Source of the DNA: Candidatus Latescibacterota bacterium
Lineage (GTDB): Bacteria; Latescibacterota; UBA2968; GCA-2709665
Length of the DNA stretch: 64,000 nucleotides
Direction: 5' to 3'
Assembly (NCBI GenBank): GCA_965222075.1
Contig: OZ244937.1
Location: forward strand, 1,760,001-1,824,000
This document shows, piece by piece, positions 4,127 through 64,000 of the stretch. Each line of letters begins with the position of its first letter. The stretch's first letter is position 1. The position numbers were made by a program, and so were the translations under genes. A model generated the notes under the pieces. It saw only the letters and a list, made by a program, of their open reading frames with translations, was not told the origin of the DNA and did not search any database.

Positions 4127-5449
4127 ATGATTACGAAAATTGAGATCGGAGGCTACCGGCTCCTCGACGAGTTTGAGGCAGACTTCAAGCCGCTGACAGT
4201 GGTGATCGGCGCAAATGCCGTCGGCAAAAGTACGCTGATCGATTGTCTGCAACTGATTGCCGAGTGTTGCGAGGTTCCCCTGAATACCGCGATTGGGTTG
4301 CATTATGGGGCAGCGTCCCTTCTTACGTCAGGGAACGGGAATGGGCAATTGACCTGGAACATCACTTTTCATGAGCCCACCACGTGGGATGCTTTGCCAT
4401 TGGAACACGAAGAGCCTCTGGTGTATGAGGTCGTTCTTCAGGCCGACCCACAGGGCCAGATGCACCCGCAATACGAGGTTCTCAGGACTCAAGAGCCAAG
4501 ACAGGGATACAGCAACCCCCTCAAGTTTCTGGAGGTGACCCCGTATCGACGGCATATATTCGACAGAACAAAGCACCGATTGATACCGTTTGATGAAACG
4601 CAATCCGCACCTGATGTTGTCCGCGATGCCGATTCAGCGGCAGCCCCGCCGAGGAGCGGAGGAACAGGCCTGCCTGCAGCGCAGGGCACTGCGCAGGCAG
4701 GCGCACAACAGGAGGCCGCGCTGCTGCTATCACAAATCCGATTCTTCAACGAGTTTCCCGTTCCTTCCTGGGTACGCGTTCTATTGGCGAATATGGCGTT
4801 CTATCCGGGTTTCGATGTGACACGGTCTTCCACGCTTCGCACCAGGGCCGCCGATATCAAACCAATTACAAGATTATCGGCTAACGGCGACAACCTGGGT
4901 ACCGTGCTGCACGAAATCCTGACCCGATACGATTACCGGTCAGCAGCAGAGGAGTTGCGCGATTTTCTGCGCGTAGCCTATCCCGCATTTGAGGACATCC
5001 ATTGCGATACCACCTATGGAACGCCGCCGCAAGTGCTCGCTGTGGTGCGCGAGAAAGGCATGTCCCGCTCCATGAATCTGTGGGATCTTTCGGACGGCAT
5101 GCTGCGATTCCTTTGCCTGGCGACAGCTCTGTTGAATCCGCAACCTCTGCCACTGGTAGCGATTGACGAACCGGAATTGGGTTTGCATCCCGGTCTGTTG
5201 CCGATTGTGGCGGAAATGATCAAGACAGCGGCGGAGCGCACCCAGGTGCTCGTGACGACACACAGCCCGGATTTGCTCAACTGCTTTGACATAGCCGATG
5301 TTGCCGTGATGGCGCGGAATGCAGACGACGCAAAGGTCGCGTGGCATCGTCCCGCGAACCGTAAGACGCTTGTGCAAATGCTCGAAAACGTTACTGATGA
5401 AACCCTTGGCGACCTGCACCGCTCCGGCGAACTGGAGGCGGTTGTATGA
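4127..5449 (+). CDS. AAA/ABC-type ATPase (AAA_21/AbiEii/OLD-like)
   Basis: Walker A GANAVGKS, LSDG signature, IDEPELGLHP, TTHS. Confidence 0.88.
   Translation: MITKIEIGGYRLLDEFEADFKPLTVVIGANAVGKSTLIDCLQLIAECCEVPLNTAIGLHYGAASLLTSGNGNGQLTWNITFHEPTTWDALPLEHEEPLVYEVVLQADPQGQMHPQYEVLRTQEPRQGYSNPLKFLEVTPYRRHIFDRTKHRLIPFDETQSAPDVVRDADSAAAPPRSGGTGLPAAQGTAQAGAQQEAALLLSQIRFFNEFPVPSWVRVLLANMAFYPGFDVTRSSTLRTRAADIKPITRLSANGDNLGTVLHEILTRYDYRSAAEELRDFLRVAYPAFEDIHCDTTYGTPPQVLAVVREKGMSRSMNLWDLSDGMLRFLCLATALLNPQPLPLVAIDEPELGLHPGLLPIVAEMIKTAAERTQVLVTTHSPDLLNCFDIADVAVMARNADDAKVAWHRPANRKTLVQMLENVTDETLGDLHRSGELEAVV
4669..4701. repeat. 33-bp palindromic element CCTGCCTGC...GCAGGCAGG, in-frame in the AAA ATPase
   Basis: CCTGCCTGCAGCGCAGGGCACTGCGCAGGCAGG encodes LPAAQGTAQA. 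Confidence 0.85.
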
Positions 5450-10265: not shown

Positions 10266-10880
10266 TTAAAACTCGATCCCCTCTCGTGCCGGCGTCCCCC
10301 TGGCGTAATAATGCTTCACCTTCCGCATCTCGGTCACCAGGTCCACGCGCGCCACCAGCGCGTCCCACACCTTGTGGCCCGACAGCACCAGCTCACACCG
10401 CCGCTTTGCATCATAGAGGTCCAGCAGCCGCATCACATCCTCCCGTGCCAGCAGGTCGTAGACCACGCCCGCCAGGATTTCATCCAGAACCAGCAGGTCC
10501 TGCTCCCCCTCCCGGATCAACCGCTCGGCGATCTCCAGCCCCCGCCTGGCCTCCTTCACATCCTCCTCCTCCGCCCCAAACCGGAACGACCCGTCGGGCA
10601 TCATCCGCTCACAGCCCGTCGGATAGAGGTCAATCCCGTCCAGTTTCCGGAGGACATGCCGCTCGGAATAGTGCTCGTGCACGCCGTCGTAGCCCTTATC
10701 GAACTGGACCAGGGCCACCTTGTGGCCAGCCCCCAGCGCACGCACGGCTAAGCCCACACAGCAGGTCGTTTTCCCCTTCCCATACCCATAGTAGGCGTGG
10801 ACCTGATGGACCTTTTCTCCACCCTTTGCAGGCGGAATCACGCGGGGGCCGGTCGCCCTCCTCGGTCGATCTTCTGTCAT
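10266..10880 (-). CDS. cobO: Cob(I)yrinic acid a,c-diamide adenosyltransferase (CobO/BtuR)
   Basis: YYGYGKGKTT, VQFDKG, LVLDEI, ELVLSG, DLVTEMRKVKHYY...AREGIEF. Confidence 0.9.
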   Translation of the reverse strand: MTEDRPRRATGPRVIPPAKGGEKVHQVHAYYGYGKGKTTCCVGLAVRALGAGHKVALVQFDKGYDGVHEHYSERHVLRKLDGIDLYPTGCERMMPDGSFRFGAEEEDVKEARRGLEIAERLIREGEQDLLVLDEILAGVVYDLLAREDVMRLLDLYDAKRRCELVLSGHKVWDALVARVDLVTEMRKVKHYYARGTPAREGIEF

Positions 10881-10900: not shown

Positions 10901-10933
10901 CCTGCCTGCCGAGCCGAGCTCGGCGCAGGCAGG
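10901..10933. repeat. 33-bp palindromic element CCTGCCTGC...GCAGGCAGG, intergenic
   Basis: CCTGCCTGCCGAGCCGAGCTCGGCGCAGGCAGG. Confidence 0.85.
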
Positions 10934-10937
10934 CGCA

Positions 10938-12218
10938 TCAGCCGCTGTGGCCGAAAAGCCTCGCAAATATAACAAAATCTCCGAAATTCACCCGTCCGTC
11001 GCCGTCCAGATCGAACTTCGGAGCCCAGTCAGGCGATTCCGGCCCGGTGCCGAAGGCCCGGGCAAACGCCGCAAAATCCCCGAAATCCACATCCCCATCT
11101 CCGTCGAAATCGGCGACCGTCGCATCCTCCAGGAAGGCGATAAAATTGGGCGGCAGCCCCGTTGAAATCGGCCCGGCTACCAGCGTATCGGCCGATGTGT
11201 CATAAACCCGGAGCCCCACCGTCTCCGGACTCTCGGGTCTACCCTGGTCCAAAACATAGAGCCGCCCCTTCAGTGCCCCAATCGCCGGTGTAAACCCGCC
11301 CGAAGTCCCCGGCAGCGGTGCCGACACCGATCCCGCCGCCAGGTTAAACCCCCTCACGCTGTTCACGAACGAGGCGTCGTCGGCCACCACCACATAGCCC
11401 CGGTCCTGCGACACCATCGCAAAGGCGCCAGCATCCCCACCCAGGTCAACTTCGCTCAGCAGAACCCCCTCCGATCGGTTGTTCTGAAGGTCCAGCACCT
11501 CGATGCCTCCATCCAGCGCGCCGCGCCTCCCCAAGCACGACAGATAGAGCTTTGCGCCCACCCGCACCTGTCCGCCGAAGGGGTTGCTGGCCTGAAGCAC
11601 AATCCCCTGAGTCCCGTCCCGCGTCGAATCCAGGTCGATCACGGTATCCGTATTCACATCCACGACCACCACCTCGCTTCGGTCGGTTGGCGGCCAAAAT
11701 GGCTCGTCCCGATCCAGCCGCTGGCAGGTCACGTAGAGGCGCCCGTCGAAAATCGTCAGGAATGTTGCCTCGGGCAACCCGTCCGCGTCGGCCACAAAAG
11801 AAAGGTCAACACCCCCCAGCGAATCCCCCGTCGCCGGGTTCACCACCAGCACCCGTTCCGATTTCAACCGCGACACATAGGCCTTCGTCTCACTTGCAAA
11901 AGCGATATGCTGAGGGTTGGAACCGTTTCCCACGGAAAACTGGAGCACCGGTGTGGTCAGATCGTCCGGATCGAGCACCAGGATATTATCCTGTCCCAGA
12001 CGATTGACCACATAAATCTTACCTCGATAGGTTTGAACCGATGCATCGCTGTGGATATTGAGCAGGTTTACCGTCGCCTGGTGGGTCTCCAGGTTCACGA
12101 CTGCAAAACTCCCGCTGCTGAAATCCGTCGTCGTCAAGATGGCTCGATCCCCTGCCCATGCACCCACAGCATTCAATCCCATCACGACAAAACCGATAAA
12201 CAGCCCCCAAAACTTCAT
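10938..12218 (-). CDS. Secreted YncE-like beta-propeller (putative cobamide-binding) with C-terminal EF-hand/dockerin-like domain
   Basis: Signal peptide MKFWG...AWA; propeller repeats (IYVVNRLG, GSNPQHIAF, KAYVS); two DFDGDGxVxFxDF motifs; located in the B12 riboswitch operon. Confidence 0.8.
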   Translation of the reverse strand: MKFWGLFIGFVVMGLNAVGAWAGDRAILTTTDFSSGSFAVVNLETHQATVNLLNIHSDASVQTYRGKIYVVNRLGQDNILVLDPDDLTTPVLQFSVGNGSNPQHIAFASETKAYVSRLKSERVLVVNPATGDSLGGVDLSFVADADGLPEATFLTIFDGRLYVTCQRLDRDEPFWPPTDRSEVVVVDVNTDTVIDLDSTRDGTQGIVLQASNPFGGQVRVGAKLYLSCLGRRGALDGGIEVLDLQNNRSEGVLLSEVDLGGDAGAFAMVSQDRGYVVVADDASFVNSVRGFNLAAGSVSAPLPGTSGGFTPAIGALKGRLYVLDQGRPESPETVGLRVYDTSADTLVAGPISTGLPPNFIAFLEDATVADFDGDGDVDFGDFAAFARAFGTGPESPDWAPKFDLDGDGRVNFGDFVIFARLFGHSG

Positions 12219-14575: not shown

Positions 14576-14642
14576 ACAGGTAGGACACACATCACCACCT
14601 TGGCTTCCCGGTCCACGAGGAAGATCAACAAAGGTACTCAAG

Positions 14643-14812
14643 CTCAGGCAGGTCTTCTGGCTTCCGGATCATCTGCCTTCTCACACCTTCCCAGCCGGTC
14701 ATTTCGGCCAGTGGTCTGTTGTGGAAGGCATCCCCGGTCACAGCGGCGGGCCCGCGACGGAATTTCACCGTCTTCCCTCTTCGGCCCCCAAAGGGGGACA
14801 ACCTGAACTACC
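14643..14812 (-). ncRNA. Cobalamin riboswitch
   Basis: Minus strand AAGAGGGAAGACGGTGAAATTCCGTCGCGGGCCCGCCGCTGT...GACCACTG...GGGAAGG...AAGCCAGAAGACCTGCC (B12 box). Confidence 0.95.
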
Positions 14813-14843
14813 GAATGGCAATATCAAAGATCGAACGTGTTCA

Positions 14844-54814: not shown

Positions 54815-57088
54815 TTATTCCCTCACCCCAATAATCTCCGACACCTCCTGCTGCAGCTTCACCAGGTTGTAAAACGCCCCCTGCCGCTCCATCAGCTCTT
54901 CGTGCGTGCCCACCTCCACGATGCGCCCACCCTCCAGAACCACCAGGCGGTCTGCATTCCGAAGCGTCGACAATCGGTGCGCGATCGCAAACGTCGTCCG
55001 GCCCATCACCAGCTGACCAATTGCCTCCTGGATCTGCAACTCCGTCTGCACGTCTACGGAAGAGGTCGCCTCGTCTAAGATCAGGATCTTCGGATCGTGC
55101 AGGATCGCACGCGCAAGCGACACCCGCTGCTTCTCTCCGCCCGACAGATTGTTGCCACGCTCGCCCACCTGCGTGTCGTAGCCGTCCGGCCTGGCCACGA
55201 TAAAATCGTGCGCCCGCGCTGACATGGCCGCACCTACAATCTCTTCGAAATCCGCCCCGGGCTTCCCATACCCGATGTTCTCTGCAATCGTCCCGCTGAA
55301 CAGGAACGGCTCCTGAAGCACGATCCCGATCTGGGAGCGCAGGTCCTCCAGGCGGACCTTCCGGATATCCACCCCATCGATCTCGATGCCGCCCCGGTCC
55401 ACATCGTAGAACCGGCAGATCAGGTTCACCGTCGTCGTCTTGCCCACCCCCGATTTGCCCACCAGCCCGATCATCTCTCCCGGCGCCACCTCTAAGTCGA
55501 TTTCGTAGAGCACCGGCTTGCTCTTGTCGTATCCAAACGTCACCTCCCGGAATCTCACATGCCCTTTCATGTCGGACATCGACGCCGCGTCCGGGTCCTG
55601 GTAGGCCTCCGGCGGGGTGTCCAGCACTTCAAAGATCCGCTCGGCGCCGACAAAGGCCCGGATCATCCAGCTGTTGACCATCCCGAACCACTCCAGAGGG
55701 CCGTAGAGCAGCCACATATAGTTGTAGAACGCCAGCAGCGTGCCCAGCGTCAGCGTGCCCCCGATGACCTCCTGCCCGCCGAACATCCAGACGATCAACA
55801 CCCCCAGGCCGGTCAGAAAGCTCATCGTGGTAAAGAAGACCGCCCGGTTGACCTCCGACCGCACCGCCGCCCGGGTCAGGTTGGCGTTATGCGCCTCGAA
55901 CACTTCGACCTCCCGGTCCTCCTGCGCAAACGCCTTCACCACCCGGATGCCGGAAAGAACCTCGTTGACCCGGGCCATCCAGATCGACCAGGCCTGCATC
56001 CACTTGGTGAAAAAGAGCCGCATCCGCTTCCAGAATATGCGCCCCCAGGCCAGAATCAGCGGAATCGGCAGCAGCACGTAGAGCGTCAACTGCCAGCTCA
56101 TGACCAACAGCACCACCAGGATGCCCAGCAGCAGCAGTCCGTTGATCACCAGATAGGGCAGCCCATCCACCAGAAAATCCTGCAGGCGGTCGCTGTCCCG
56201 CGTCACCCGGGACATCACCGCGCCCACCTTCCGCTTGTCGTAGAACTGCAGCGAGAGCAGCTCCAGCCGCCTGTAGAGCTGGCTGCGGATATCGGTCGTT
56301 ACCCGCGCGCCCAGCCAGGTGATCGTCCAGCCGTGCAGCCACTCCGCCCCCCATGTCAGCAGCCGCACCCCCACCAGCACCAGCACCAGCAGCCCCAGCA
56401 GCCCCACCCGGTCCACGCCCTCCAAAGACACTCCCTCAGGTGGCACCAGCACCCCGTCCACAATCCGCCTGGTAATCAGCGGCGGTATCAGCTCGGCCAC
56501 CGTCGTCAGGATCGATGCGAACGCCAGCAGGGCCGTGCGTCCTTTGTAGGGACTCAGATATTTCGCAATCCGCCCCAGCACGGCCAGCTTCCGGATGCAG
56601 GCCGGGCAGATCCCGTCCTTCTCGGGCAGAAGCCGGCCGCATTTTTCACACCGCGTCCGTTCCAGCTTCGACCGGATCAGAAGAGGCTCGGCCTTCCGGA
56701 GCTGCTCGATCCCCCGGGCCACCTCGGAAAACTTCAGCGCCTGGGTGTGTGAGTAGGGCACGGTGACCGTGGGCCGGTCCTTCCGCTCGATCTCCAACCG
56801 CGCGCCCCCCACCAGCGGCTCGGTGCGGGCCAGGGTCACCTCCTCGATCGGGACCTCCACGACGCCCCTTCCATTCCCACCTGCCTGCGCGGCGCTGTCG
56901 CACCGCGCTGCAGGCAGGTCGGAAAAGACCAGAATACGCTTCCCCGTCACCACCACCCACTGCGTGCCGTAGTCTCCCCGGGCGTCTAAGTCCGAAGACA
57001 CCCGGATCAGCTCCTCCTCGTCTCCCGGAAGCATCGCTTCAAGCATCGCTTCAAGCCCGTTGGCCGCCGGTTCCAGCAATCGGTTCAC
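54815..57088 (-). CDS. ABC exporter paralog (fused TMD-NBD) with N-terminal extension and Zn-ribbon
   Basis: CEKCGRLLPEKDGICPAC, GKSGVGKTT, LSGGEKQR, ILDEATSS. Confidence 0.92.
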   Translation of the reverse strand: MNRLLEPAANGLEAMLEAMLPGDEEELIRVSSDLDARGDYGTQWVVVTGKRILVFSDLPAARCDSAAQAGGNGRGVVEVPIEEVTLARTEPLVGGARLEIERKDRPTVTVPYSHTQALKFSEVARGIEQLRKAEPLLIRSKLERTRCEKCGRLLPEKDGICPACIRKLAVLGRIAKYLSPYKGRTALLAFASILTTVAELIPPLITRRIVDGVLVPPEGVSLEGVDRVGLLGLLVLVLVGVRLLTWGAEWLHGWTITWLGARVTTDIRSQLYRRLELLSLQFYDKRKVGAVMSRVTRDSDRLQDFLVDGLPYLVINGLLLLGILVVLLVMSWQLTLYVLLPIPLILAWGRIFWKRMRLFFTKWMQAWSIWMARVNEVLSGIRVVKAFAQEDREVEVFEAHNANLTRAAVRSEVNRAVFFTTMSFLTGLGVLIVWMFGGQEVIGGTLTLGTLLAFYNYMWLLYGPLEWFGMVNSWMIRAFVGAERIFEVLDTPPEAYQDPDAASMSDMKGHVRFREVTFGYDKSKPVLYEIDLEVAPGEMIGLVGKSGVGKTTTVNLICRFYDVDRGGIEIDGVDIRKVRLEDLRSQIGIVLQEPFLFSGTIAENIGYGKPGADFEEIVGAAMSARAHDFIVARPDGYDTQVGERGNNLSGGEKQRVSLARAILHDPKILILDEATSSVDVQTELQIQEAIGQLVMGRTTFAIAHRLSTLRNADRLVVLEGGRIVEVGTHEELMERQGAFYNLVKLQQEVSEIIGVRE
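56880..56918. repeat. 39-bp palindromic element CCTGCCTGC...GCAGGCAGG, in-frame in the ABC exporter
   Basis: CCTGCCTGCGCGGCGCTGTCGCACCGCGCTGCAGGCAGG encodes LPAARCDSAAQA; absent from the adjacent paralog. Confidence 0.9.
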
Positions 57089-60078: not shown

Positions 60079-61149
60079 CTACCTCTTCTTCAAACAGAAC
60101 AGATATTCCTCCACGCGGTCTGCCTTATAAACCCGGTTCTCCCGGTCCGTATCCGCCCGAAAACGCTGGTAATCCCGTATCACCACATCCACCTCACCGT
60201 ATTGACCGATCATTTGCAAAATCTCATCCTTAGCCATAATCCCCTCACTGTTATAGCTGAGGAATACATACCGTGCCGATGTCTTTTTAACCATATCCTC
60301 AAGTGCGGGTAACGCCCGTTTTTTCGTACAGAAATCTGACTTCTGTCCATCGTACGGCCTCAATCCGGTCACGCCTTTCAAGTCCGGGTCGTCGTACCGG
60401 GCAATTGTCTCCAGCACGTGGTAATTCGCACAGTACTGGCGCTGATTATAGGGAGGATCCATATAGAGCACGTCACAAAATAGACGCTCAACCAGCTGTT
60501 GCCCATTCTCATTGTATACTTCGTGGTCCTCATCGCTCCGGACAATTGCAGGCCGCTCCAGATGCAGGGGCTTCATCGCGCTTTTCTTGATATGCTTCAA
60601 AAATGCCCCATAAACCGACGCCGTATTTGCAACCTTATCCACCGCGTCAATCAAGCTCGCCAGAAGGTAAAAGTACTCATCCTCCGTCAGCTTTCCTTCC
60701 TCTCGCCACACCTCAATCTGCATCCGGACCGCGTCGCACCGTTTGCCGTTCTCGTCCGAGAAATACTGGCGTTTGAACGCTGAGCCTGCCGTCCCGCCCG
60801 GGCAATAATTGCGATAGACGAACCCGGCTTTTCCTTTCAGCGTATTGAGGTGTTCCAGCACAACATCGATAGCATCGTAAAACAGTGCCGTCCGAATGAC
60901 TTTTAATTCCTTGAGAATCCCAGAAAATTCCGGCACCTTATTCATCCTCACAAGCGCCCGGTTGAGACAATAGGCATAATACTGGATGTCGTTGGCGACA
61001 ATTCGGAACCCCTGCTGTTTGAAGTGCCACCCCACAATCCCGGTGCCTGCAAAAAGGTCCAAAAACACCCGGCTGTCGGAATCAACCTTTTTCAGAATAC
61101 CCTTTTCGAGAAAGTGAAGGAGGGAATATTTGCTTCCAATATAATTCAT
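60079..61149 (-). CDS. D12-class N6-adenine DNA methyltransferase, M.NlaIII/M.HpyI-like
   Basis: MNYIGSK, DLFAGTGIVG, KVANTASVYGAFLK, LYMDPPYN.RQY.ANYH, FLSYNSEG. Confidence 0.88.
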   Translation of the reverse strand: MNYIGSKYSLLHFLEKGILKKVDSDSRVFLDLFAGTGIVGWHFKQQGFRIVANDIQYYAYCLNRALVRMNKVPEFSGILKELKVIRTALFYDAIDVVLEHLNTLKGKAGFVYRNYCPGGTAGSAFKRQYFSDENGKRCDAVRMQIEVWREEGKLTEDEYFYLLASLIDAVDKVANTASVYGAFLKHIKKSAMKPLHLERPAIVRSDEDHEVYNENGQQLVERLFCDVLYMDPPYNQRQYCANYHVLETIARYDDPDLKGVTGLRPYDGQKSDFCTKKRALPALEDMVKKTSARYVFLSYNSEGIMAKDEILQMIGQYGEVDVVIRDYQRFRADTDRENRVYKADRVEEYLFCLKKR

Positions 61150-61499: not shown

Positions 61500-64000
61500 C
61501 TACCCTCTCCCCAGCACCCCTCTCAAAAACCGTCCCGTGTGCGATCCCTCCACCTGAGCAACCTCTTCGGGCGTGCCGACCGCCACCATATATCCCCCCT
61601 CGTCGCCGCCCTCCGGCCCCAGGTCGATCACCCAGTCCGCCGTCTTGATCACATCCAGGTTGTGCTCAATCACGATCACCGTATTTCCGGCATTGACCAG
61701 CCGATTGAGCACCTCCAGCAGTTTCTGGATATCCGCAACGTGCAGCCCTGTGGTCGGCTCGTCCAGGAGGTAGACCGTCTGCCCGGTATTCGGACGGGAA
61801 AGTTCCCTGGCCAGCTTCACCCGCTGCGCCTCCCCCCCCGACAGCATCGTGGACGCCTGGCCCAGCACCATATAGCCCAGGCCCACATCCTCCAGCGTCT
61901 GCAGGAACCGGCGTGCCTTCGGCACATTTTCGAAATGCAGCAGCGCCTGTGACACCGTCATCTCCAGCACATCTGAGATCGACCGCTCCCGGAACCGCAC
62001 CTCCAGCACGTCCCGGTTGAAGCGCTTTCCGCTGCACACCTCGCATGTCACCCACACATCGGACAGAAAGTGCATCTCGATGCACCGGGAGCCCAGCCCC
62101 TCGCACGCCTCGCAACGCCCTTTGCGGCTGTTGAAACTGAAGGCCCCCGCCTTGAACCCCCGCACCTGGGCCTCCGGGAGCTGGCTGTAGAGCCGCCGGA
62201 CCTCATCGAACAGCTTCACGTACGTGGCCGGGTTGCTCCGGAGCGAAAACCCGATCGGCGTCTGGTCGATATTGATCACCTTGTCGACCAACTCCAGCCC
62301 CCTGACTTCGTCCCCCCACGCCCCGGACGCCTGGTTAACCCCTGCCGCAAGCGCCCCGAAAAGCACATCGTTCACCAGCGAACTCTTGCCCGACCCCGAC
62401 ACCCCGGTCACGCACGTCAGCGTCCCCAGCGGAAAGCGCACGTCCAGGTCCTTCAGGTTGTTGTGGTGGACGCCGGCCACCTCCAGGGCCTTCCCGTTTG
62501 CAGGCCGCCGCCTGGACGGCACCCGGATCGCCAGCTTCCCCTTGAGGTACTGCGCCGTCAGAGACCCCTTTCGCACGCTCAGCCGCCCGGGTGAATTGGC
62601 GGCCACCACCTGCCCCCCCTCTCTCCCAGCGCCCGGCCCGAAATCCAGGATGTGGTCCGCCGCCTCCAGCGTCTCCCGGTCGTGCTCCACCACCACCAGC
62701 GTATTGCCCAGGTCCCGCAGCCGCTTCAGCGCCGTCAGCAGCCGCTGGTTGTCCCTCTGGTGCAGCCCGATCGTGGGCTCGTCCAGCACGTAGAGCACCC
62801 CGGTCAGCCCGGAACCGATCTGGCTCGCCAGCCGGATACGCTGCGCCTCTCCGCCCGACAGCGTCGGTGCCCGCCGCGAAAGCGTCAGATAGCCCAGCCC
62901 GACCTCATCCAAAAACCACAGCCGGCTCCGGATCTCGTGCAGCACCTCCCCGGCGGCCGCCTGTTCCCGGGGTCCCAGCGCCATCTCCTCGAACCAGGCC
63001 CGGGCCTCTGCAATCGACAGATCCGCCGTCTGGGGCAGCGTCTTGTCCCGCAGCCGGACCGCAGCGCTCACCCGCTTCAGCCGCATTCCCTGGCAGGACG
63101 GACAGGGCACATCCTGCACGAACGCTCCCAGCCCCTTCCGAAACCCGGGCGACAGGCGGACGAGCGCCTCCACGGTGGGGAACAGCCCCCGGTACTGGAA
63201 CCTCAGCCCCCCCGGCCCGTTGATCCATTTATCCCCCAGCCCGTAGAGCAGCGCCTCCACCGCTTTATCGGGCATCTCGGACACCGGCGTGCGCAGGTCA
63301 AATCCAGCCTCCCGGCCCACTGCCGTCAACAGATCCAGCAGCTTCCCGGACAGCAGCCCCCAGGCCGTCACCGCCCCTTCCAGCAGCGACCGCTTCGGAT
63401 CGGGAATCAGCGTATTTTTCCCCATCCCCCGCTGTGTCCCCAGCCCCTCGCAGACCGGGCACCAGCCCTCCGGGCTGTTGAAGGACAGCCGCTGCGGCGT
63501 CACCTCGTCAAAGCTCTGTCCGCAGGAAGCGCATGAGAGGTGCTGGCTGAACCGCGTCTCCTCCTCTCCGTCCGCTACCACCACCACCCCGCCCGACAGG
63601 TCCAGCGCCGCCTTCACGGAATCGGCAATCCGCTTTCGCGCCGACCGCTTCAGCGTGATGCGGTCCACCAGGATCTCCAGCCGGTGCGTCTGCCGGTAGT
63701 CGATCTCCACCGGCGTCTTTAAGAGGAACACCTTCCCGTCCAGCCGCCCCCGCAGATACCCCTCCCGCCGCGCCCGCTCGATCAGCATCTCGTAGTCCTC
63801 TCCCCGCTCCGGCTCCCGGGGCGCCAGCAGGTAAAGCAGGCGCCTGCCTGCCGAGTCGCCTGCCTGCGCCGAGTTCTGCTCGGCAGGCAGGGCGCAGGCA
63901 GGTCCCTCCGGCATCTGCACCACGCGGTCTACGATCTCCTGTGCCGACTGCGCCCCGGCCGCCACCTCGCAATCGGGACAGATCACCTCCCCCAGCAGCG
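61500..64000 (-). CDS. uvrA: Excinuclease ABC subunit A (5' end outside the window)
   Basis: SFNSPEGWCPVCEG, LSGGEAQRIRLASQIGSGLTGVLYVLDEPTIGLH, TGVSGSGKSSL, DLGPEGGDEGG, SHTG. Confidence 0.96.
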   Translation of the reverse strand, partial: LLGEVICPDCEVAAGAQSAQEIVDRVVQMPEGPACALPAEQNSAQAGDSAGRRLLYLLAPREPERGEDYEMLIERARREGYLRGRLDGKVFLLKTPVEIDYRQTHRLEILVDRITLKRSARKRIADSVKAALDLSGGVVVVADGEEETRFSQHLSCASCGQSFDEVTPQRLSFNSPEGWCPVCEGLGTQRGMGKNTLIPDPKRSLLEGAVTAWGLLSGKLLDLLTAVGREAGFDLRTPVSEMPDKAVEALLYGLGDKWINGPGGLRFQYRGLFPTVEALVRLSPGFRKGLGAFVQDVPCPSCQGMRLKRVSAAVRLRDKTLPQTADLSIAEARAWFEEMALGPREQAAAGEVLHEIRSRLWFLDEVGLGYLTLSRRAPTLSGGEAQRIRLASQIGSGLTGVLYVLDEPTIGLHQRDNQRLLTALKRLRDLGNTLVVVEHDRETLEAADHILDFGPGAGREGGQVVAANSPGRLSVRKGSLTAQYLKGKLAIRVPSRRRPANGKALEVAGVHHNNLKDLDVRFPLGTLTCVTGVSGSGKSSLVNDVLFGALAAGVNQASGAWGDEVRGLELVDKVINIDQTPIGFSLRSNPATYVKLFDEVRRLYSQLPEAQVRGFKAGAFSFNSRKGRCEACEGLGSRCIEMHFLSDVWVTCEVCSGKRFNRDVLEVRFRERSISDVLEMTVSQALLHFENVPKARRFLQTLEDVGLGYMVLGQASTMLSGGEAQRVKLARELSRPNTGQTVYLLDEPTTGLHVADIQKLLEVLNRLVNAGNTVIVIEHNLDVIKTADWVIDLGPEGGDEGGYMVAVGTPEEVAQVEGSHTGRFLRGVLGRG
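63843..63902. repeat. Nested palindromic elements (27-bp outer + 33-bp inner at 63859-63891), in-frame in uvrA
   Basis: CCTGCCTGCCGAGTCG[CCTGCCTGCGCCGAGTTCTGCTCGGCAGGCAGG]GCGCAGGCAGG encodes PACALPAEQNSAQAGDSAGR. Confidence 0.9.

Follow-up and report, generated by a model that had tools for sequence, protein, structure and literature searches.

The tandem uvrA-type gene and its insert

The window analysed here, a stretch of 64,000 nt from contig OZ244937.1 of a Candidatus Latescibacterota bacterium, ends within a gene for a fused double UvrA protein whose second half carries, in frame, a 60-bp insert built of two short palindromes, one nested inside the other. The host genome is a single contig of 5.36 Mb with 59% G+C, and positions below refer to the window unless given as genome positions. 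As argued in the following sections, the insert is very probably a selfish composite of two elements resembling repetitive extragenic palindromic (REP) sequences that entered the fused UvrA gene recently.

The host gene is a 1922-aa frame comprising two complete UvrA units arranged head to tail, and its product matches the solved UvrA structures 9gxk, 3zqj and 2r6f at E 1e-114. An open frame of at least 1886 aa for the fused protein was found in 37 of the 40 relatives searched; among the other three, two have truncated frames, their contigs being fragmented, and the third yielded a weak match only. A database search limited to long proteins returned 5441 matches, the named ones being annotated simply as UvrA and belonging to Latescibacterota, Gemmatimonadetes and Singulisphaera (Planctomycetes). 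A separate single-unit uvrA, a 938-aa frame at genome position 2685068, is present in the same genome and contains no element. An earlier note on this DNA, made from the sequence alone, had described an insertion tolerated in a core repair gene, uvrA. The UvrA-type identity and the in-frame tolerance stand, but the host is a conserved paralogue of the canonical gene, and the wording is to be softened to that extent. UvrA works as a dimer, so the tandem fusion may represent a covalent pseudo-dimer.

Read on the minus strand, the insert keeps to the codons of the gene, its 60 bp specifying PACALPAEQNSAQAGDSAGR. The inner 33-mer, read as its reverse complement, differs at two positions from an intergenic copy situated in a 57-bp gap between two crude gene calls, and two matches to it at no more than three mismatches were found in the window, compared with none in 100 shuffles. 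When the 16 nt to its left and the 11 nt to its right are joined, they form a 27-mer that occurs intact at four other genome loci, with one further copy carrying one mismatch. The sequence, the coordinates and the opposite orientation of the two copies are all as the earlier note had described, as are the two differences and the intergenic position of the related copy. Treated as single-stranded DNA, the 60-mer is predicted to form one hairpin enclosed by another (-24.3 kcal/mol, z -4.2), and the inner 33-mer also has a stable predicted fold of its own (-13.9 kcal/mol, z -4.8). The length of the unit is divisible by three and none of its frames holds a stop codon, so the host gene reads through the insert. 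In the window, the 9-nt terminus of the elements, CCTGCCTGC, was counted 11 times, where 0.87 would be expected and 100 shuffles gave at most four. The features concerned are listed in Table 1.

Table 1. Position of the insert, its parts, the host gene and further members of the repeat family (window coordinates unless marked as genome)
Feature	Coordinates	Strand	Remarks
Whole insert, 60 bp, 20 codons	63843..63902	-	In frame, in second half of fused double-UvrA gene; exact gap in G001, G004, G007 and G003
Inner 33-bp palindromic element	63859..63891	- (strand matching the copy at 10901-10933)	Five genome copies of the exact variant
Outer 27-bp element, left 16 nt	63843..63858	+	Joins 63892-63902 to make the 27-mer
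Outer 27-bp element, right 11 nt	63892..63902	+	Joins 63843-63858 to make the 27-mer
Fused double-UvrA gene, 3' part	61500..64000	-	Whole gene at genome 1821500-1827268 (locus L085), extending past the window end
Second family member in host gene, 36 bp	genome 1826664-1826699 (2664 nt past the window end)		In first UvrA unit; adds 12 aa, LPVRAAARTQTG
Family member, 33 bp	10901..10933	+	Intergenic; preceding crude call ends at 10880, following one starts at 10938; two differences from inner copy
Family member, 33 bp	4669..4701		Inside a 450-aa open reading frame (crude gene calls)
Family member, 39 bp	56880..56918		Inside a 757-aa open reading frame (crude gene calls)

Empty sites and strain-level polymorphism

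The DNA alignment with the same-genus relative G001 and with G004, G007 and G003 has a gap of exactly 60 bp, situated between GGA and CGC, its boundary being ambiguous by at most 1 nt, and no target duplication longer than 1 nt was found in it. The same gap bears out the earlier claim that the insert adds 20 amino acids in frame. In a 20-row protein alignment, all 19 other genomes, including the one of the same genus, lack the 20 residues (residues 145-164 of the second unit). The relatives read PEG followed directly by RRLYLLAP, or a variant of it, across the site. The corresponding stretch in the first UvrA unit of this genome's protein is EEGTRVHVLAP, also without an insert.

At finer scale, the 90%-identity cluster of the host protein has eight members, which were aligned. 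The insert is present in P0123 (the protein of this genome), P0001, P0124, P0127 and the fragment P0125, and absent from P0122, which is the protein of G001, at 95% identity. P0001, P0124 and P0127 come from contigs of 3.28, 5.46 and 5.24 Mb, respectively, and a D-to-A change inside the insert is found in P0001 and P0125. Comparison of alleles across the related proteins, which the earlier note had proposed as a check, gave only two kinds: five proteins carry both elements, and G001 together with 18 further relatives carry neither. No allele with a single element was found among the six cluster proteins that span the site and the 18 further relatives. The insertion is lineage-specific, with the site empty in G001 of the same genus and filled in near-identical assemblies, and its description as fairly recent holds good; the composite would have entered after the split from G001.

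Six relatives, G001 among them, lack the 36-bp element of the first UvrA unit. This element is present in P0123 and P0127 and absent from P0001 and P0124, although the strains are otherwise about 100% identical. This polymorphism is direct evidence that the repeat family has moved very recently.

A family of short palindromes dispersed through the genome

Both parts of the insert belong to a family of GC-rich palindromes whose members end in a 9-bp perfect inverted repeat, CCTGCCTGC...GCAGGCAGG, with the general ends CCTGCC... and ...GGCAGG; sub-families with ends CCTGCCTGTGCG..., CCTGCTTGCGCGC... and CCCGCCTGCGCGC... were counted in the census. With no more than one mismatch tolerated in each terminus and a spacing of 0-24 nt between them, we detected 279 elements at 278 loci, covering 0.16% of the genome, compared with two in a reversed-genome control. 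The elements are mostly 25-36 nt long, with lengths peaking at 33 nt (95 elements), 27 nt (77), 30 nt (19), 25 nt (18) and 36 nt (10), and 209 of the 279 are multiples of three. While the termini are constant, the inner stem and loop are variable, and the inner stems differ by compensating changes. Among the 250 elements of 25-36 nt, 227 (91%) are free of stop codons in all six frames, compared with 1371 of 5000 random genomic windows (27%) and 2100 of 5000 element shuffles (42%). As short palindromes of about 20-40 bp in many dispersed copies, they agree in size and number with REP sequences in the broad sense.

Using exact termini, we counted 104 elements in this genome, 99 in G009, 90 in G021, 77 in G003, 63 in G002 and 30 in G019, these five relatives belonging to other genera, while the fragmented same-genus genome G001 has six and 23 of the 41 genomes have none. 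Identical element variants are common to different genera. Such a patchy spread across genera is typical of mobile DNA. Genomes G004 and G038, of 8.1 and 8.4 Mb, contain no CCTGCCTGC elements despite 32 and 75 IS200-type Y1 matches, respectively.

The commonest 33-mer lies within a repeat of about 100-230 bp found at genome 391019-391300 and at no fewer than ten further places (for example 1905896, 3042246, 3992668 and 4835817), where it is followed by a second, T-rich, terminator-like hairpin. The possibility of a larger parent element was considered and rejected: 11-13 copies of this 33-mer do share flanks, but the shared unit is gene-free and only about 100-230 bp long.

With Rfam there was no match at the insert site, and the sole match in the window was a cobalamin riboswitch (14630-14821, minus strand, 133.9 bits). 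Directly downstream of the fused UvrA gene, a 356-aa open reading frame (60079-61149, minus strand) contains a DPPY motif; it may be an adenine DNA methyltransferase.

Elements inside other genes

Genes were called with a codon-usage log-odds model, which gave 3793 genes over 86% of the genome. By these crude calls, 120 of the 278 loci (43%) lie within genes, 154 are intergenic and four are partial; the intergenic share, set against the roughly 14% of the genome that is intergenic, represents an enrichment, again by crude calls. Restricting the set to calls with a score of at least 50 left 78 loci in 65 calls, 63 of them multiples of three, with the three reading frames used 39, 20 and 19 times (chi-square p 0.008).

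Twenty hand-picked host open reading frames were scanned against Pfam, and 16 gave matches at E<=1e-5. They include a C25 peptidase, a hydantoinase, two thiamine pyrophosphate enzymes, FGAM synthase (PurL), a histidine kinase, a xanthine-dehydrogenase subunit, an AcrB-type pump, an Omp85/POTRA protein of the BamA type, a UvrD-like helicase and the R subunit of a type I restriction system. Clean gaps were seen against G001 in the AcrB-type gene (27 bp) and in the UvrD-like helicase gene (36 and 45 bp). At the PurL site, which is complex, the gap is of 54 bp, and at a further UvrD-like site it is of 24 bp; the flanks of both have diverged, for which reason these two were not counted as clean empty sites. 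No target duplication longer than 1 nt was found at any of the four clean empty sites, namely the 60-bp site, the AcrB-type site and the two in the UvrD-like gene.

The UvrD-like helicase (1197 aa, locus L044, genome 1988302-1991895) contains three element-derived inserts, all absent from G001. With UvrA, it echoes a published remark, from the portion of PMC3733652 available to us, that REPs are often located in repair genes.

Nesting, and arrival in one step or two

The arrangement seen in the UvrA gene is not an isolated case. Deleting elements in silico recovered an outer element in 42 of 279 cases (15%), and for 25 of these 42 the genome contains, at another place, an intact copy that matches the recovered outer element exactly; at random positions such a deletion succeeded in 4 of 20000 trials. 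The family lands in its own members far more often than expected by chance. Cut points in nested cases fall mostly within TGCG, CGCG or GGCG, after the second letter, some at the edge of the loop and some in the stem. At the 76 loci left after removal of copies with shared flanks, G or A precedes the element and CG, TC or TG follows it, and the pair at positions -1 and +1 is complementary in 36 of them. Left-flank tetramers are biased (CAGG at 10, CCGA at eight and CCGG at four of the 76 loci), with no strict target tetranucleotide. Recognition of hairpins and preference for a short motif are inseparable in these data, and self-nesting may partly reflect the flank preference. The idea in the earlier note that the element prefers its own hairpin therefore stands as far as the excess of self-nesting is concerned, but not as a demonstration of hairpin recognition.

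The earlier note had read the UvrA insert as two successive insertions, a reading in need of correction. A 60-bp composite identical to this one, joined at the same point in the same orientation and read in the same frame to give the same peptide, is present at genome 1741864-1741923. A near-copy, differing at two positions, occupies genome 558202-558261; the flanks of both are unrelated to those of the UvrA site. Because the same composite and a near-copy exist elsewhere and no one-element allele was seen, the single insertion of a pre-formed 60-bp composite is likelier than two hits in place. The composite at 1741864 lies within locus L043 (genome 1740160-1741986), about 25 codons into the Omp85/POTRA (BamA-type) gene and possibly just past its signal peptide.

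Two hits in place, with the 27-mer entering the gene first and the 33-mer later entering its apical part, form a rather unlikely alternative. Nesting is frequent and involves many inner and outer combinations, the intact 27-mer and the intact 33-mer each occur alone elsewhere in the genome, and the composite must have been formed by nesting once, somewhere. These observations are, however, met by the two copies of the composite with unrelated flanks, and by the alleles at the UvrA site, which carry both elements or neither.

Consequences for the protein

The second UvrA unit was modelled with AlphaFold2 from the 20-row alignment, giving a mean predicted local distance difference test score (pLDDT) of 67.5. 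In the model, residues 144-163 fall below a pLDDT of 50, lack secondary structure and lie between a helix (residues 131-139) and a strand (166-173). Alignments to solved UvrA structures end before the insert and restart after it. Loop modelling had been proposed in the earlier note, and the model does predict a disordered loop, with the reservation that it is itself of moderate quality.

In the excerpts of PMC12796330 considered here, the signature-I domain of the best-matching solved UvrA comprises residues 90-119/120 and 423-506, and the UvrB-binding domain is described as mobile and not visible by cryo-electron microscopy. The Walker-A lysine is at position 39 in the solved UvrA and at position 36 in the second unit here. 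By this mapping, the insert would lie about 25 residues into the mobile UvrB-binding domain, between its first helix and its first strand, and the 12-aa insert of the first unit would likewise fall in the UvrB-binding domain of that unit. The 20 residues are a low-complexity loop, predicted to be disordered, and the protein probably still works with it. The insert is most likely harmless decoration, the loop being presumably neutral.

A different view would be that the insert has been kept because it alters the behaviour of the protein, through contact with UvrB or tuning of repair, along the lines that Di Nocera et al. speculated on for REP-tagged repair genes. The mapping of both insertion sites to putative UvrB-binding domains, the three inserts in the UvrD-like helicase, and the REPs reported for uvrA, uvrB, uvrD and recBCD genes of other bacteria in the consulted part of PMC3733652 would all fit such a role. 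On the other hand, inserts occur in many unrelated genes (the hosts scanned being hand-picked), the 12-aa insert is polymorphic among near-identical strains, and the peptide is of low complexity and predicted to be disordered. We consider a selected function improbable.

Support for the assembled sequence

The nested structure could in principle be an artefact of assembly or polishing at a repeat. To assess this, Logan contigs of four runs (X1, X19, X20 and X21), all of them k-mer contigs, were placed on window positions 63500-64000, and a junction was counted as bridged if a contig had 31 letters on both sides of it. The runs that hold this stretch carry sponge, coral-reef and marine labels, and one of them may be the source sample. 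In X19, one contig (63500-63886) bridges the left junction and another (63871-64000) the right, each extending more than 31 letters to both sides, and in X1 a contig (63785-63891) bridges the left. The contigs of X20 and X21 enter the insert by only 13-29 letters from either side, bridging no junction by this measure. No contig skipping the 60 bp was found in the four runs, although such contigs drop rare variants and rare empty alleles would thus escape notice. The spike in depth over 63857-63890 represents repeats summed over all organisms in the samples rather than copy number.

Short-word contigs that break within the repeat, as in X20 and X21, and the split of the fused UvrA into two open reading frames (P0126 and P0125) at the place of the insert in another assembly are the observations that an artefact would explain. 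They are outweighed by the contigs of X19 and X1 that cross the junctions and by the proteins from four other contigs that contain the insert, one with the D-to-A variant inside it. Misassembly, which the earlier note had wished to see excluded, is very unlikely in view of the run contigs and the four other assemblies that encode the insert. P0126 and P0125 lie on one 17-kb contig, with the break just before the insert, which may reflect a frameshift or else an error in assembling the hairpin.

That the 20 residues are an ancestral or functional UvrA segment lost by the relatives deserves next to no credit, for nothing beyond the kept reading frame speaks for it, whereas all 19 relatives, across genus, family and order, lack the segment, as do the paralogous first unit of the same protein and the solved UvrA structures, and its DNA is a perfect pair of family repeats.

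How the family may move

For the preferred reading, that of a recently inserted selfish composite, the following course can be proposed. The composite would insert between two codons of the second UvrA unit without target duplication, most likely arriving in one step as a ready-made 60-bp unit. As a guess, the mover would be a trans-acting nuclease of the single-strand type (HUH/Y1 or other) acting on extruded hairpins.

REP and REPIN elements are mobilised by REP-associated tyrosine transposases (RAYTs), and IS200/IS605 elements use single-strand transposition. Searching the genome with PF01797 gave two matches, one an intact IS200-like copy with its own unrelated hairpin, the other a broken copy with a single 25-mer element 150 bp upstream. 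Both were inspected for a RAYT or REPtron acting as the mover, and this candidate was rejected as neither had a tie to the repeats. Weaker partial Y1-like matches (E about 1e-8) exist in some element-rich relatives and have no counterpart in this genome. We also considered open reading frames located between two elements 250-2500 bp apart. There were 11 such pairs, and nine open reading frames were scanned against Pfam.

Several of these results, together with some from the preceding sections, weigh against the interpretation as a mobile selfish composite. No mobilising enzyme was found, neither PF01797 match in the genome being linked to the repeats, and none of the nine bracketed open reading frames is a transposase (they encode a sigma factor, a serpin, a glutamyl-tRNA synthetase, a methyltransferase and others). 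Across the 41 genomes, Y1 transposase counts do not track element counts, with 32 Y1 matches versus no elements in G004, 75 versus none in G038, and none versus 30 in G019. The flank preferences are weak. The codon following the insert is CTG in this genome versus CGG in the relatives, a difference that may have been left by the insertion or may be an ordinary substitution. Gene calling was crude, so some of the 120 in-gene loci are in low-scoring or spurious open reading frames or at gene ends, and a few in-gene loci are chance matches, for example to a Walker-A motif. Finally, the structure model is only moderate, and the domain assignment rests on numbering that we mapped ourselves.

A more speculative proposal is that the family is 'coding-proof' selfish DNA, in which lengths of 27, 30, 33 and 36 nt and stop-free frames are adaptations and spread proceeds by targeting extruded hairpins, independently of RAYT or IS200 enzymes. 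We advance this only tentatively and consider it rather unlikely. If true, hairpin-targeting spread would account both for self-nesting at about a hundred times the expected frequency and for composites moving as finished units, and the closed conspecific genomes would offer a currently active system in which to find a new REP-mobilising enzyme.

Relation to known palindromic repeats

The presence of repeats inside genes, uvrA included, has already been published for other bacteria. Di Nocera, De Gregorio and Rocco (2013; PMC3733652), in the passages available to us, report intragenic REPs in several species, many of them in replication and repair genes, with double REP inserts in both uvrA genes of Opitutus terrae and two REP dimers in a uvrA of Thioalkalivibrio. 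In those passages the CGTC families are presented as having no dedicated transposase, and the question of how REP-like repeats without a RAYT move is raised for them.

The elements described here resemble the GTAG- and CGTC-tagged REPs, as portrayed in the same passages, in several respects: these are palindromes of 20-40 bp, present in tens to thousands of copies and patchily distributed among species; some copies lie wholly within open reading frames and are translated there, with two-unit inserts encoding 20-30 aa; and uvrA and other repair genes serve as hosts, sometimes with two sites per gene. In contrast, the Latescibacterota elements have neither tag within the element or consistently in the flanks, and they have 9-bp inverted termini. 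Their units are nested, unlike the head-to-head or tail-to-tail dimers described in those passages, and the share of intragenic copies is high (43% of loci by crude calls). The lineage, Latescibacterota, is also different.

Rickettsia palindromic elements (RPE), as described in the consulted part of PMC10969869, are likewise selfish palindromes found in frame in unrelated housekeeping genes, apparently compatible with the fold of the protein and with its function. However, RPE measure about 150 bp and encode a conserved peptide of tens of residues, whereas the present elements are 25-36 bp long (9-12 aa) and are used in all three frames.

With REP/RAYT and IS200/IS605 systems the elements share hairpin-forming units and the lack of a target-site duplication, and like them they may move as doublets or composites. 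They differ from REPIN/RAYT systems in that no RAYT flanked by repeats was found in this genome, and from IS200/IS605 in having no strict target tetranucleotide and no co-occurrence with Y1 transposases. The terminal inverted repeats are like those of miniature inverted-repeat transposable elements, but target-site duplication was not seen at the four clean empty sites.

Literature searches, judged from their listings, turned up no paper on such repeats in Latescibacterota. What is new here is the family itself, with no tag and 9-bp perfect termini, its lineage, the nested arrangement and the polymorphism at strain level.

Conclusions

For annotation, the 20-residue segment should be taken neither as a feature of UvrA nor as the sign of a broken gene. 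In this genome and the near-identical assemblies related to it, a REP-like family can be observed while it is moving, and closed conspecific genomes with polymorphic sites are good material for studying how REP-like repeats move without a RAYT. The inserts also indicate how much short insertion a multi-domain repair ATPase may tolerate in a region that maps, by our model, to its UvrB-binding domain.

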